A DNA stretch of 64,000 nucleotides from a virus (taxonomy: Duplodnaviria; Heunggongvirae; Uroviricota; Caudoviricetes), in IMG/VR virus record IMGVR_UViG_3300024270_000010; one strand, given 5' to 3'. Under the pieces are notes generated by a model. It searched no databases, was not told the origin of the DNA, and saw only the letters and a program-made list of their open reading frames with translations. Positions within the stretch are counted from its first letter, which is position 1, and each line of letters opens with the position of its first letter. Positions 738-62,089 of the stretch are shown piece by piece. A program made the translations under genes and the position numbers.

Positions 738-1697
738 TTACTTTATACTATATCCAAATTCTTTTGCTTTGAAATAATCCTGCCAGTAGTCTTCTCGTTC
801 ATCCAAGAGCGCACGAGTGCATTCTTCAATGACTTCAAAGGTGAAATTTTCTGGACCTGCCGCAATCATTGCAGGATAAAGTTTATTGCGGGTTGGGGCA
901 TCTGCGCCGACGCCACGCTTGATATGTTGTTTCCAACGGTCTGCTAAGTTAGCAGCTTGACCAACATAACATTTTCCAGTTTCAATTTCAGTTATTTTAT
1001 AAATGCCGGTATGGATTCCTCCGCCAATTACTCTGCCAATCAAATCAGTGGTTGGTTTTTCGTAATAACATTTCCAAATAACTTTATTCAAAGGCTCTTT
1101 ATCTCTCAATAAATGTTCAATTGACCGCAAGGCTTTGATTTCCTCAACGTCAATATCATTTAGTTGAATACGATAAAAATCCTTTGCTGTTTTCATTTCT
1201 TCTGCTCTTTTGGCGGCCAGGACGGCGGCATCATTAATCGCACGCATAGCACTAACGTTATCAGCCATTTGGCGATATTGTTCCATAAAGTGTGCGACAG
1301 TTTCTTCATATTGTCTTTGAAATGCTTCAACATTTTCTTGATGCTCCTACGCTGCGCGAACTGCATCTTTCGCGAAGCAATCTTTCATAGCATCCATCTT
1401 AGACTTATATAGAGCATTTGCGGCCTCAGTAGCTTGTTCCTCAGCAACTTTTATTGTTGAACGCAAATTTTCAAGACGGTCATTTTCACGACCTCTTTCA
1501 AGAACAAGTTTTGTGTGCTCTTGGTCCAAAATGGAATTTGATTCAATGAGTTGTTTATTTTCTAACTCAAGTTTTCTATTCTATTCAATAATTGAACTAT
1601 TGATTTGAACAGTCTATCGTAATTTTGGTTTTAGAGTTAGATAAACAACTAATCCACTTATAATTGCCGCAAGTAGAAAAATAATTATATAACTCAT
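738..1697 (-). CDS. GIY-YIG nuclease-domain protein with N-terminal TM helix and coiled coil; contains 3 in-frame TAG codons (1614-1616, 1581-1583, 1347-1349)
   Basis: ATG at 1697 (MSYIIIFLLAAIISGLVVYL...) stays in frame through three TAGs into the 60-aa and 182-aa ORFs. The 182-aa part carries GIY-(10)-YVG-(9)-R..H (GIYKITEIETGKCYVGQAANLADRWKQH). Frame is kept across about 960 nt and all three interruptions are TAG. Confidence 0.5.
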
Positions 1698-1708
1698 ATC
1701 AAAAAAGA

Positions 1709-1740
1709 AGGCGTAAGATATATTTCAATCTTACGCCTGG
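1709..1740 (-). terminator. Rho-independent terminator (hairpin aggcgtaagat...atcttacgcct followed by T-run on the minus strand)
   Basis: Inverted repeat plus UUUUUU immediately downstream of the 1753..2028 gene. Confidence 0.5.
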
Positions 1741-1752
1741 TATATGTCAAAA

Positions 1753-2028
1753 TTACTCAGCAGCTTCAACAACGGCATCGGGATCGAAAGCCATACCTGC
1801 GTCAGTCAGCTTCAGGAACTTGACAGGCTTGTGGGAGCCATCTTCCAGCTCAACTTCTGCGGGAATACGAACACCGTAGCCCTTTCTCTGAATAGCACTG
1901 GTGAAGATACCATCAACCTGACGCTTTTCCAGACCCAAAGCAGCAGCAACGTCAGCAGCAGTTACGTCAGCGCCATTAATCTCCTTCATGTAATTTAGAA
2001 CCTTCTTAGAATTATCGCTCATAGCCAT
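1753..2028 (-). CDS. hypothetical protein (91 aa)
   Basis: ORF with AAGGAGA RBS and TAA stop, downstream of a TTGACA-N17-TATAAT promoter. Confidence 0.5.
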   Translation of the reverse strand: MAMSDNSKKVLNYMKEINGADVTAADVAAALGLEKRQVDGIFTSAIQRKGYGVRIPAEVELEDGSHKPVKFLKLTDAGMAFDPDAVVEAAE

Positions 2029-2074
2029 AGTAAATAATCTCCTTTAATAAATAATATTTTTTAGTTAATTTTGT

Positions 2075-2110
2075 AACCTGATTGGTTATGTAAATATTAT
2101 ATCAAAAAAT
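2075..2110 (-). promoter_or_regulatory. Class-I sigma70-type promoter CTTGACAtttcaaaaattttttgaTATAAT (extended -10 TGaTATAAT)
   Basis: Exact TTGACA, 17-nt spacer with the AAAAATTTTTT core, and TATAAT on the minus strand upstream of the 1753..2028 gene. Confidence 0.5.
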
Positions 2111-2132
2111 TTTTGAAATGTCAAGAAATTTT

Positions 2133-2324
2133 TTAATTTTTTTCAAGCAATTCCATTACAAGTTCGTCAATAGCGACCATATCTTCCAGACTGTGTACGC
2201 TACTTGAGATTCTCATAATTTCTTCTTCTGCCTGCTTGACAGCCTTAGGATCTTCATTCTTCATAATGATCCTCTCGCACTTAGCGATCTTGACCGCCAA
2301 GTTTTTCATTTCTTTTTTCTTCAT
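2133..2324 (-). CDS. hypothetical coiled-coil protein (about 63 aa; the ORF-track start at 2366 overlaps the -10 box, so the start is trimmed to the internal ATG)
   Basis: The ORF-track start codon lies inside TGTATAAT of the promoter. The first ATG after an AAGGA RBS is M15. Confidence 0.4.
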   Translation of the reverse strand: MKKKEMKNLAVKIAKCERIIMKNEDPKAVKQAEEEIMRISSSVHSLEDMVAIDELVMELLEKN

Positions 2325-2346
2325 TTGAAAATTTTCATCCTTAATC

Positions 2347-2384
2347 TTTACGATTTTATTATACAAAAAATTTTTCGTTTTGTC
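2347..2384 (-). promoter_or_regulatory. Class-I promoter ATTGACAaaacgaaaaattttttgTATAAT
   Basis: TTGACA-N17-TATAAT with TGn; overlaps the ligase 3' end. Confidence 0.45.
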
Positions 2385-2386
2385 AA

Positions 2387-59928: not shown

Positions 59929-59943
59929 ACTTTTCCTCCTCAA

Positions 59944-60234
59944 TTAAAAAGGATCAGAGCCATCAATAGAGCCGCCGTCATAAATAAGATCACCAGATGG
60001 GGGATTATTTCCACCAGAATTACCTCCAGAAGAGCTTGACATACAATATGGATTAATTTCAATCCATTGCTTAGAGCCATTTAACATATAATATTTAGAA
60101 CTACTAATAATAAAAATAGTGCTACCAGGAGTTAATCTATTTTTATCTAATTGTTTTAAATCATCAATAGTATCTAAATCAAAATGCTTAATACCATATG
60201 TTATATGACCACTATTTGAATGAATATTAACCAT
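59944..60234 (-). CDS. hypothetical Gly/Ser-rich protein (about 96 aa)
   Basis: AAGGAGGG RBS, ATG 60234. Confidence 0.4.
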   Translation of the reverse strand: MVNIHSNSGHITYGIKHFDLDTIDDLKQLDKNRLTPGSTIFIISSSKYYMLNGSKQWIEINPYCMSSSSGGNSGGNNPPSGDLIYDGGSIDGSDPF

Positions 60235-60299
60235 TATAACCCTCCTTTTTATGTAAGTAAATATCTTCATAATATTATAAAAAATTCATTGAGCATCTT

Positions 60300-60390
60300 A
60301 ATACTTTTAGTCCAAAAATTTCTAAATCACTTTTTACTTTTGGGTTTTCGGCACTTTCGACTGGCACCGACCGGAGCAGGTTATCTGTTA
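60300..60390. repeat. Conserved intergenic element, copy 2 (see 33865..33935), in the divergent region between the minus-strand late genes and the single plus-strand gene
   Basis: Shared blocks aaatttctaaatc, ctttt, tttgggtt.tcgg, ccggagcag. Confidence 0.45.
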
Positions 60391-60456
60391 TATTCGGCCA
60401 AAAAATGGTAATATTTATCTAAAAATTTTTATATTTTATGAAAGGAGAGTGTTTAC

Positions 60457-61191
60457 ATGAAAATTATTACTAATAGAAATCACTCATATTTTATTAATGA
60501 CTTGACCACAGCTGAACTCGGCAGCATTATTTTTGATACTGATGAAAATAAAATGTATATTATGTTAGAACCTGGTGTTCTAACTGAAATTGCTGCTGAA
60601 GATGTTGGTGTTGAAACACTAGAAGCTTTGACTGAAGCAATTGCGGCTGGCGGTGAAGTAGTTGTTTCCGCAAGTATTGATGCTCCTGCTGGATTTGCCG
60701 TTACCGCAGACACTACTGTTGTAAATAATGGTGAAATCACCATTAAAGAAGATACTGAAGGTAACGGTGTATTTACTGTAACTAATGGTACTTTAACTCT
60801 AGATGGTAAAGGCACTATCAATGGATTGGGTAATAATGATTGGAGTATGGCCGTATGGGCCAAGGAAAATGGTAAAGTAATTATTAATAATGGTTATTTT
60901 ACTAATGTTGGCGCTAAATCTGTTGAAGATTCTGAACATTTTGACTTAATCTATGCTTCTGGAAATGCTCAAGTTGAAATCAATGGTGGCGAATTCAAGT
61001 GCGAGACTCCTAAGTGGACTCTAAATATTAAAGACAAAGACCGTGCGACCGCAAGCATTGTCGTTAAGGGTGGTAAGTTTCACGGCTTTAATCCATCTGA
61101 TTGCGCAAGCGAAGGTCCAAATACTAATTTTGTAGCTCCTGGCTATAAAGTGGTTGAAGAGAATGGCGTATTCACAGTAATGCCAGAATAA
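60457..61191 (+). CDS. Right-handed beta-helix-like repeat protein (possible tail spike/fibre-associated), 244 aa
   Basis: Only plus-strand gene; AAAGGAGAG RBS; repeats NNGEITIKED / GNGVFTVTNGTLTLDGKGTINGLGNN typical of parallel beta-helix proteins. Confidence 0.5.
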   Translation: MKIITNRNHSYFINDLTTAELGSIIFDTDENKMYIMLEPGVLTEIAAEDVGVETLEALTEAIAAGGEVVVSASIDAPAGFAVTADTTVVNNGEITIKEDTEGNGVFTVTNGTLTLDGKGTINGLGNNDWSMAVWAKENGKVIINNGYFTNVGAKSVEDSEHFDLIYASGNAQVEINGGEFKCETPKWTLNIKDKDRATASIVVKGGKFHGFNPSDCASEGPNTNFVAPGYKVVEENGVFTVMPE

Positions 61192-61195
61192 AAAT

Positions 61196-61228
61196 TAAAA
61201 GGCTGAGATAGAAATTCTATCTCAGCCT
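61196..61228 (+). terminator. Rho-independent terminator (ggctgagatagaaattctatctcagcc + T-run) for the plus-strand gene
   Basis: 11-bp stem then TTTTTTGTTTTT. Confidence 0.55.
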
Positions 61229-61246
61229 TTTTTGTTTTTCTATAAA

Positions 61247-61285
61247 AAAAAATCCCCTCTCCGAAGAGAGGGGAAGGATTCGAGA
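61247..61285 (-). terminator. Rho-independent terminator (cccctctcttcggagagggg) for the convergent minus-strand gene
   Basis: Stem-loop plus U8 on the minus strand. Confidence 0.55.
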
Positions 61286-61336
61286 TTACTTGATAACGGC
61301 GTAACGCTCGCTATCCAGCTTCTGCGGCCGTGCCGA

Positions 61337-62089
61337 TCAAGAGATTGGTAAGTCAGGCTCACGCACGAGATATTTATCGCCCATTATCATTTCTAATGTA
61401 ATTTTATCTTTTTCCCAATATGGGATACGAACCAATGGGATATTATGGGTTAATGCATATTCATTTTTAACAGCATCCCTTTGTTTTTGTAATTCTAATC
61501 CACCCCACTTATCAACACTATGATAATGTTGTTCTCCGTCAAATTCAATAAGGCGTACTATTTTATCATTTTCAACAATAGCAAAATCAAAACGACTTTT
61601 TGGCAAATCTAAAAATACATATTCCTCAATGAAATTAATACCTTCAAAGATTAAACAATTTAAAACATTGGTCGCACCAACTGAACGATGATAACAGCCA
61701 CAAGAAACGGTTCTATTTTCATCTTTTCTGCGCAATTCATGGCCTCGAACTTCAATAATTTTTCCACAATCGCATTGACAAATCCAATATAATTCTCCGC
61801 CATTTCCTTTGCGCTCACTGCGTTGTTTAACAACCAATTTACCAAATCGTTTGTTTAACATTTCTTCTTCACTTTTTTGGTATTTTGCTTTTCTTAATTG
61901 CTCTTGACGATAGCAACCACAGCTCGATATATCACCATTTCTCAATGAGATACTTTTTACACTTTTTATTGTGCCACATTCGCACTAACATATCCAATAA
62001 CTGCCACCAGTTGTTTTTCTATTTTTATCTCTCTCTAAGACAGTTAATTTACTAAATTTTTGATTTGTTAAATCTATTAATTTAGACAT
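61337..62089 (-). CDS. Zn-ribbon repeat + Vsr/DUF559-like endonuclease-domain protein (paralogue 3), one in-frame TAG (61985-61987)
   Basis: AAGGAG RBS, ATG 62089. First repeat GGSYWIC[TAG]CECG aligns with the second repeat ELYWICQCDCG, so TAG matches Gln. C-terminal IEFDGEQHY...NIPLVRIPY. Confidence 0.5.

Follow-up and report, generated by a model that had tools for sequence, protein, structure and literature searches.

Does TAG still act as a stop codon in the tailed phage (Caudoviricetes) behind IMG/VR record IMGVR_UViG_3300024270_000010, and, if it does not, which amino acid does it encode, which tRNA decodes it and why do some genes contain it and others not? The questions arise from a stretch of 64,000 nucleotides (nt) of this genome (the whole of it referred to here as the window), for which an earlier interpretation made from the letters alone (the sequence-only reading) had named at least 11 genes that stay in frame and homologous across TAG, and had proposed that TAG is a sense codon, most likely for glutamine (Gln). 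Our data support this proposal. TAG very probably (probability about 0.9) encodes Gln and is decoded by a tRNA with a CUA anticodon (tRNA-CUA) carried by the phage itself, because conserved columns of a reverse transcriptase (RT) alignment, the interchange of TAG and CAA among relatives, the catalytic Gln of a protease and alignments of paralogues within the window all agree on this residue.

TAG within genes and the residue it encodes

When open reading frames (ORFs) were bounded by TAA and TGA only, 11 genes of the window, all on the minus strand, proved to hold 31 in-frame TAGs and not a single in-frame TAA or TGA, in agreement with the earlier count of genes (Table 1; the coordinate of a TAG is the plus-strand position of its T). 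These genes comprise tail fibres, the RT and one target of a diversity-generating retroelement (DGR), an endolysin, a small membrane protein and three homing-endonuclease-type genes, i.e. ~13-15% of the genes in the window; ~85% avoid in-frame TAG completely. Across nine of the genes the interrupting stops are TAG in 29/29 cases, although only 20% of the off-frame stop triplets are TAG (P ~1e-20) and TAA is the commonest off-frame stop. Re-calling the genes with TAG as sense, as had been suggested, raised the coding density of the region 47.5-62.3 kb from 66% (standard code) to 89%, compared with 69% for TGA as sense and 76% for TAA as sense, and left that of the region 12.6-47.5 kb unchanged; for the whole window the density went from 84.7% to 89.9%, a rise that the TGA and TAA controls failed to reproduce. 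Both tests were used instead of a count of in-frame ORF pairs split by one stop, which is not discriminating because tightly packed same-frame genes yield many TAA junctions.

The individual alignments on which the sequence-only reading had relied were recovered. Both TAGs of DGR target B (54008, 53978) align to CAA codons at 57052 and 57022 of target A, to which target B is 59% identical. In the endonuclease gene at 61337-62089, YWIC[TAG]CECG aligns to the internal repeat YWIC[CAA]CDCG, and in its paralogue read-through of the TAG at 41008-41010 restores an NIKLIRIPY block common to 61337-62089 and 37854-38591. The Peptidase_M15_3 match of the endolysin (aa 97-194) spans the TAG between SRH..D and HVD, the RVT_1 domain of the RT likewise extends across TAGs, the repeat module of the large fibre stays in frame through the TAG at 48363-48365, and the counts given for the RT (11 TAGs) and the 142-codon gene (5) were exact. 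For the 84-aa membrane protein, a relative (L007) keeps the C-terminus behind the TAG and has Leu at the TAG site. Gene calls on identical contigs differ, the JGI calls being fragmented and the ENA calls reading through TAG; ENA-derived calls for this phage already place Gln at all 11 TAG sites of the RT (P0001). The expectation that standard-code callers fragment every late gene was too broad. The fibre, endolysin, RT and endonuclease genes are indeed split, but target A and the genes at 51806-52687, 59467-59928 and 59944-60270 belong to the late block and contain no TAG.

The probability that the TAGs come from sequencing or assembly errors or from decaying pseudogenes is negligible. The window is part of a ~200-kb gut phage carried by metagenome contigs of 183-203 kb, and look-ups of exact proteins led to independent ENA/JGI assemblies with 100% identity across a 6.7-kb overlap and, in a second overlap of 14.4 kb, identity save for one indel. 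One real defect at the assembly level does exist: near 12389 a single T is missing (AACTTGTG in the window, AACTTTGTG in contigs L005 and L006), so that, in this assembly alone, the lysozyme domain at the N-terminus of the endolysin is out of frame. This deletion is likely an assembly error or a minor variant, and the endolysin is intact as a 556-aa ORF in L005 and L006. At all TAGs, however, at least six independent assemblies carry identical sequence, and sequencing error, which the sequence-only reading had itself raised as a possible explanation, is excluded by this agreement. Pseudogene decay is excluded by the restriction of the interruptions to TAG, by RT relatives that keep their ORF lengths and TAG positions at 65-71% identity, and by an evidently active DGR.

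The retroelement was recognised by an RT with an RVT_1 domain, two pairs of template repeat (TR) and variable region (VR), differences between them that fall almost exclusively on adenines, and a VR at the 3' end of each target. TR/VR mismatches are at TR adenines in 35/35 cases for target A and in 25/27 for target B. Since adenine-specific mutagenesis by a DGR requires a functional RT, the RT, which is the most TAG-rich gene of the window, must be a working one. The DGR (52600-58200) consists of one RT and two duplicated cassettes of target plus TR (57675-56174 and 54634-53131), each with a cognate TR/VR pair of its own; both TRs are followed downstream by the same hairpin, AACTCTCTTTGAGAGTT. 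An Avd-like accessory gene was not recognised at the DGR.

The identity of the residue was examined by aligning the RT with 113 distant full-length homologues (~50% identity), with X placed at the TAG positions to avoid alignment bias. Homology continues past the TAGs. Gln occupies TAG column 94 in 113/113 homologues, TAG column 253 in 112/113 and a third in 61/113, and the remaining ones are variable polar positions; summed over the RT TAG columns, the log-odds are +14.1 bits for Gln, -6.4 for Glu, -12.9 for Lys and -28.3 for Trp, the next-best residue after Gln scoring about -6. Gln-type codons of the RT are 11 TAG, 10 CAA and 0 CAG. Three related RT genes from other metagenomes (65-71% identical) are interrupted by TAG only, 9-11 times each, and the commonest alternative codon at the TAG sites is CAA, also at the invariant Gln positions 88, 94 and 253; TAG positions are conserved among these relatives, yet turn over quickly. 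Independent evidence comes from a papain-like protease (Peptidase_C1) in the flank of the window. Its TAG, in GIKN[TAG]GAVGSC, falls on a position that is Gln in 120/120 homologues and that in cathepsin K corresponds to the Gln of KNQGQCGSC, which we take to be the oxyanion-hole Gln19.

The CUA tRNA beyond the window

As had been remarked, no suppressor tRNA is visible in the window; no tRNA at all was found there. The search that had been recommended for the rest of the genome identified one tRNA with a CUA anticodon, 6.2 kb past coordinate 64000, on the coding strand of contigs 100% identical to the window (L001 3468-3542, L054 7673-7747) and also on a 100%-identical IMG/VR contig, a 17.9-kb fragment of the phage. 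It was called by ARAGORN and scores 51.5 bits with the Rfam tRNA model (gathering score 29). At least 19 tRNAs make up the array to which it belongs, a tRNA-Gln(UUG) and a tRNA-Gln(CUG) of the phage among them (L054 1-11345); close relatives (L055, L057, L058) carry up to 33-34 tRNAs (nearly a full set). Many relatives have a CUA tRNA, sometimes in two adjacent copies, and some have a transfer-messenger RNA. The only upstream promoter candidate, a consensus-type match 157 nt upstream (L001 3283-3311), says nothing on timing. A partial match to OLE RNA (RF01071; L001 4987-5076, ~4.7 kb past 64000; 52.9 bits, gathering score 50, model positions 436-595/616) was noticed within the same array, between a tRNA-Lys and a promoter cassette.

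tRNA-CUA folds into a cloverleaf whose variable loop is short; U1 faces U72 without pairing, U35 is in the anticodon and G73 is the discriminator. Glutaminyl-tRNA synthetase recognises its substrates by U35, G73 and a 1:72 pair that opens easily, and the amidotransferase GatCAB uses U1-A72. Among 477 tRNAs of the phage family with an encoded CCA end, U1 together with G73 was found only in tRNAs for Gln (14/28) and Asn (6/13) and in CUA tRNAs (13/17), and this acceptor-end signature is the only discriminating classifier for tRNA-CUA. Given the coding evidence and these acceptor-end features, it is plausible that tRNA-CUA is charged with Gln. Several observations weigh against such a simple picture. 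The tRNA body is not of an obvious Gln type, as it matches E. coli tRNA-Trp at 57/75 positions and E. coli tRNA-Gln at 49-50/75; its nearest neighbours in a panel of 559 family tRNAs are Trp, Met, His, Cys and Gln tRNAs at 0.69-0.72 identity; and genes for a release factor, an aminoacyl-tRNA synthetase or a protein directed against release factor 1 (RF1) were found nowhere in ~85 kb (window plus ~21 kb of flanks). The T-arm and acceptor half are identical to those of many bacterial tRNA-Cys genes; matching this part exactly (23 nt) in bacterial genomes hit almost nothing but tRNA-Cys, a pattern that is biased by the GC-rich acceptor, and blastn of tRNA-CUA against E. coli genomes gave no match.

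A precedent for a body and a charging identity that disagree exists. Yaniv, Folk, Berg and Soll reportedly found in 1974 that the E. coli suppressor su7 is a tRNA-Trp whose anticodon has changed from CCA to CUA and which is charged mainly with Gln. Like su7, tRNA-CUA has G73 and a body closer to tRNA-Trp than to tRNA-Gln; unlike su7, it also has U1 opposite U72, the open first pair of the Gln type.

That TAG is read as another residue (Trp, pyrrolysine, Lys, Glu, Leu or Tyr) is highly improbable. Trp has some support on the tRNA side. The best annotated match of tRNA-CUA in the phage database is a tRNA-Trp, and of two genomes (L076 and L090) one has tRNA-Trp(CCA) at a locus that is taken in the other by a CUA tRNA whose acceptor stem is similar, a hint that some suppressors arose from tRNA-Trp; moreover, RT column 321 is Trp in 76/113 homologues. 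Two RT TAGs and the protease TAG nevertheless sit on invariant Gln columns, TAG swaps mostly with CAA in relatives, and Glu, Lys and Trp are penalised at the RT columns (by about 6, 13 and 28 bits); a Trp reading was rejected on the score given above. Pyrrolysine is suggested by the ARAGORN label 'Pyl', which is that program's name for a CUA anticodon, and was rejected on the negative score of Lys, the Gln identity of the conserved columns and a search that found no pyl genes near tRNA-CUA. The short variable loop excludes the Leu, Ser and Tyr types of tRNA, and G73 rules out the signatures that Lys, Glu and Cys tRNAs show in this family.

No more probable is the idea that the host supplies the reassignment, being either a code-15 organism or the source of a suppressor. 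The failure to find a release-factor or synthetase gene in the ~85 kb fits it, but the phage has its own CUA tRNA, ~85% of its genes wholly avoid in-frame TAG, two genes appear to end at TAG (see below), and standard-code Firmicutes and Bacteroidetes hosts are reported for such phages (bioRxiv 10.1101/2021.08.26.457843). One protein of the window itself may bear on charging. A 169-aa YqeY/GatB-like protein (27207-27716, minus strand; Pfam 8e-9; PHROG 'tRNA amidotransferase') might interact with tRNA-Gln or the suppressor tRNA, which is pure speculation.

Distribution of TAG over early and late genes

The early-late gradient described by the sequence-only reading is real. TAG accounts for 24/115 Gln-type codons at 47.5-62.2 kb compared with 2/259 at 12.6-47.5 kb (p = 1.5e-11), and both of the latter lie upstream of likely starts; the TAGs at 62107, 41586, 37879/37891, 31144 and 18025 sit upstream of likely start codons. 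That TAG is a sense codon throughout this phage is an overstatement, and endonuclease genes with TAG occur within early regions, which the sequence-only reading had described as almost free of it. The repeated promoter cassette that had been proposed is confirmed as a sigma-70-like element, TTGATTTTTATAAAAAAATATGATATAAT, with 13 regular-expression matches and 16 copies in its repeat family, mostly ahead of TAG-free genes; further copies stand inside the tRNA array (L001 3555, 5090, 8718 and 9885).

Base composition varies along with TAG. Genes at 14.7-47.4 kb have a GC content of 42-53%, encode Gln by CAG (209 CAG vs 48 CAA) and contain few off-frame TAG triplets; genes below 14 kb and at 47.5-62 kb have a GC content of 23-42% and encode Gln by CAA. 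Composition is not the whole explanation of the TAG distribution, however, because the low-GC replication genes (ligase, topoisomerase II subunits, RNase H, PhoH) are also without TAG (0/74 vs 24/115 in the late block, p = 2.6e-6).

As a terminator TAG is nearly eliminated. The 77 remaining ORFs of at least 60 codons stop at TAA (59) or TGA (18), a tally on which the calling method itself imposes TAA/TGA. The sequence-only reading had seen a single TAG terminus, at 17946, and had called it ambiguous. A TAG end is present there, and it is not merely ambiguous, as homologues mark it as the real end of the protein: among the 120 homologues listed of 226 matched (84-109 aa), 90 end -1 to +3 residues from the TAG position, and the 30 residues that read-through of this early zinc-ribbon ORF would add are found in none. 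The TAG recurs in a close relative; in a more distant one the codon is GAG, and a TAA stands three codons further on. Within the window this downstream TAA is now CAA, because the P-loop of an overlapping kinase, which the read-through frame crosses out of frame, has GGC AAG and not GGT AAG; TAG is consequently the only stop near the natural end of the zinc-ribbon gene. A second case is a ParE-family ORF in the flank (profile positions 3-77/89), which probably ends at a TAG 8 nt before a tRNA-Met and without it would run through the tRNA-Met gene. The remaining TAG termini are thus confined to early-looking genes, which is consistent with a codon read as stop until the suppressor has accumulated.

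How could such a distribution work during infection? Charged tRNA-CUA would compete with host RF1 at UAG. The replication, nucleotide and nicotinamide adenine dinucleotide (NAD) genes, without TAG and mostly behind the repeated sigma-70-type promoter, would, being TAG-free, be translatable by the unmodified host machinery, and TAG-bearing genes would give full-length protein only once the suppressor tRNA has built up. Fibre, lysis, retroelement and endonuclease proteins might in this way be delayed in translation even when their genes lie in or behind early transcription units; the gating would act on translation, independently of promoters. For another recoded lineage, translational gating of an intron endonuclease has also been put forward (bioRxiv 10.1101/2021.08.26.457843). 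On the strength of this literature we lean, with some reserve, towards recoding as a gate that may time late expression.

Several points speak for caution. The 'late genes' considered here are fibres, lysis genes and the DGR, capsid, portal and terminase being outside the window. The confinement of TAG to low-GC, CAA-using genes partly confounds composition with function. The TAG-bearing endonuclease gene at 40900-41694 stands directly behind an early cassette (41684-41743), and the large fibre gene may share a transcript that starts at an early-type cassette (52724-52752), as no terminator lies between. The GIY-YIG gene is one gene downstream of a promoter-like site (2096-2124). A strong terminator (47534-47561) follows the fibre gene, and another (62164-62193) stands between the gene at 61337-62089 and the upstream early gene.

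The strongest competitor of a timing device accepts TAG as Gln and regards its distribution as a by-product of gene history and composition. This explanation, which we judge unlikely although it is a serious contender, accounts well for the low-GC, CAA-using character of the TAG-bearing genes, for their being accessory or mobile types, for the position of some behind early-type promoters and for the fast turnover of TAG positions among RT relatives. It accounts less well for the replication genes, which are low in GC and have no TAG, and for the near-absence of TAG terminators, which argues for genome-wide selection on the codon; moreover, the same bias towards lysis, structural and intron-endonuclease genes is seen in unrelated recoded lineages (bioRxiv 10.1101/2021.08.26.457843).

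Going beyond gating as such, we tentatively suggest, at somewhat short of even odds, that UAG could have two meanings within one cycle, terminator of at least one early gene and Gln codon of the fibre, lysis, DGR and endonuclease genes. The switch would be made by a suppressor with a non-Gln body (Trp-/Cys-like) and a Gln-type acceptor end (U1 opposite U72, G73), which the YqeY/GatB-like protein might assist, and the DGR RT, with TAG for over half of its Gln codons, would be the most tightly gated protein, so that mutagenic retrohoming would take place late only.

Genomic context and comparison with known recoded phages

The window has a GC content of 40% and carries essentially all genes on the minus strand. 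Its proteins were annotated by PHROG and Pfam scans (Table 1). Megablast searches with 24 kb and 15.5 kb of the window gave no nucleotide-level match among INPHARED phages.

Table 1. Features of the 64,000-nt window, with in-frame TAGs
Feature	Coordinates	Strand	In-frame TAG	Evidence or remark
GIY-YIG endonuclease	738-1697	-	3: 1616, 1583, 1349	Pfam GIY-YIG 2.4e-8; 319-aa gene call on ENA contig
NAD-dependent DNA ligase	2387-4375	-		PHROG/Pfam
Topoisomerase II subunits, two	4804-7179, 8309-10204	-		PHROG/Pfam
Endolysin (Phage_lysozyme2, Peptidase_M15_3, PG_binding_1, SH3_3)	10917-12587	-	2: 12278, 11804	
84-aa single-transmembrane protein with acidic tail	13871-14125	-	1: 13936	holin-like position upstream of PhoH and endolysin
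NAD-salvage genes and phosphoesterases	16.8-30 kb	-		PHROG/Pfam
Early zinc-ribbon gene, 85 aa	17946-18203	-		ends at TAG 17946-17948; first gene behind cassette 18234-18262
Early promoter cassette TTGATTTTTATAAAAAAATATGATATAAT	18234-18262	-		sigma-70-type; TTGATT -35, 17-nt spacer, extended -10
Further cassette copies	20531, 21980, 26125, 33827, 35353, 39736, 44877, 47490, 52724, 63801			repeat family
Sigma factor	34409-35314	-		PHROG/Pfam
RNase H, PhoH, RNA ligase, HNH endonuclease	within window	-		PHROG/Pfam
Zn-ribbon/DUF2726-type endonuclease paralogue	40900-41694 (40900-41445 in list of TAG-bearing genes)	-	1: 41010	
Tail-fibre-like genes and DGR	47.5-62 kb	-		PHROG/Pfam
1393-aa tail-fibre-like protein, internal repeat modules	47574-51755	-	3: 51644, 51284, 48365	single TAA/TGA-bounded ORF
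61-codon ORF, less certain gene	52837-53022	-	1: 52983	
TR B	53225-53420	-		TR/VR comparison
VR of target B, 3' end of gene	~53436-53631	-		TR/VR comparison
DGR target B, tail protein paralogue	53436-54629	-	2: 54008, 53978	
DGR RT, 381 codons	54910-56055	-	11	Pfam RVT_1 aa 70-250
TR A	56260-56440	-		TR/VR comparison
DGR target A	56444-57670	-	none	PHROG tail protein 8e-49; VR ~56444-56640
142-codon fibre-like gene	57677-58105	-	5 (vs 4 CAA)	one 142-aa gene call on ENA contig
409-aa coiled-coil fibre protein	58207-59436	-	1: 59406	TAG within conserved N-terminal FLD..G..LWSKI motif
Zn-ribbon/DUF2726-type endonuclease paralogue	61337-62089	-	1: 61987	

Some neighbouring genes are of interest in their own right. 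A NAD-salvage cluster (20805-28564, minus strand) encodes an NMNAT-like nucleotidyltransferase, NAD synthetase, a phosphatase, nicotinamide phosphoribosyltransferase, Sir2 and phosphoribosyl pyrophosphate synthetase, and resembles the NAD+ systems of gastrointestinal jumbo phages (PMC11662467). Two minus-strand genes inside the TAG-free block encode proteins unusual in phages: an 833-aa protein (44943-47444) with a major-vault-protein shoulder domain (Pfam 8e-22) and a vault repeat (1.5e-8), and a 510-aa SPFH/Band 7 protein (14779-16311; 2e-20). On the flank that carries the tRNA array (L001 1-345, 1391-2170, 7489-9878) are found a PD-(D/E)XK nuclease with a TAG near its end, the papain-like protease with its one TAG, an EcoRI-like adenine methylase and a GmrSD/HNH protein. 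The opposite flank (L005 13929-21989) encodes ThyA, DHFR, SPbeta-type YorF and YorH proteins and DnaB helicase, all TAG-free.

As the sequence-only reading had recognised, the pattern matches that of stop-codon-recoded phages of the code-15 type. The phenomenon itself is known from earlier work on gut phages (Borges et al., bioRxiv 10.1101/2021.08.26.457843; Lou et al., bioRxiv 10.1101/2023.08.07.552389), and our results leave the established picture unchanged. Three details might be new: the conserved TAG terminator of an early gene, the hybrid suppressor tRNA and an RT as the most TAG-dense gene. For practical purposes, standard-code callers break up the genes for the fibre, the endolysin, the RT and the endonucleases, and annotation, host-range prediction and DGR analysis of the lineage must therefore use code 15. 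The 64 kb also constitute a natural test case for recoding as a timer of late protein synthesis, in which a repeated early promoter, TAG-free early genes, TAG-bearing genes behind early-type promoters, an early TAG stop and a TAG-rich RT within a DGR are combined.

Borges et al. (bioRxiv 10.1101/2021.08.26.457843) reported TAG aligned to Gln, phage suppressor tRNAs (a CUA suppressor was detected in 40% of TAG-recoded genomes), standard-code replication genes next to recoded structural, lysis and homing-endonuclease genes, and depletion of TAG as a stop; for crAss-like phages, code 15 has been validated by proteomics (PMC9523058). The present phage shares with the crAss-like, Lak, Jade, Sapphire, Agate, Garnet, Amethyst and Topaz clades in-frame TAG at Gln positions and a CUA tRNA of its own. 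It likewise has standard-code replication genes, recoded lysis, structural and homing-endonuclease genes, a depletion of TAG as stop and a low GC content of the recoded genes, and, as in Jade, Sapphire and Agate, the recoded modules are scattered over a genome of ~200 kb. It differs in that no gene for release factor 2 (RF2) and no 'code change module' was found in ~85 kb; RF2 and synthetase accessory genes are reported from some recoded clades only and are not required. The share of TAG-bearing genes in this window, 13-15%, is below the clade means of 26-71% given by Borges et al., the window being dominated by early genes.

With respect to genome size, close parallels are the code-15 jumbo phages with CTA-anticodon tRNAs from the rumen, pig and human gut (PMC13037316, where a threshold of 10% in genome-wide coding density is set for recoding) and phAss-1 (PMC10607447), with which this phage shares the size class, a large tRNA set and a CUA tRNA. 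The 'tRNA-TERM' of phAss-1, which is 83% identical to tRNA-CUA over nt 29-75, is among the few similar tRNAs in the database.

The retroelement, finally, agrees with the findings of Lou et al. (bioRxiv 10.1101/2023.08.07.552389), who described recoded DGR RTs adjoining recoded tail-protein targets in phages that persist in the infant gut. Here, too, an RT with multiple TAGs lies beside a TAG-bearing tail target with a VR at its 3' end. Unlike the elements described by Lou et al., however, the present one has a single RT for two target/template cassettes, with TAG in only one of the targets, and 11/21 Gln-type codons of the RT are TAG.

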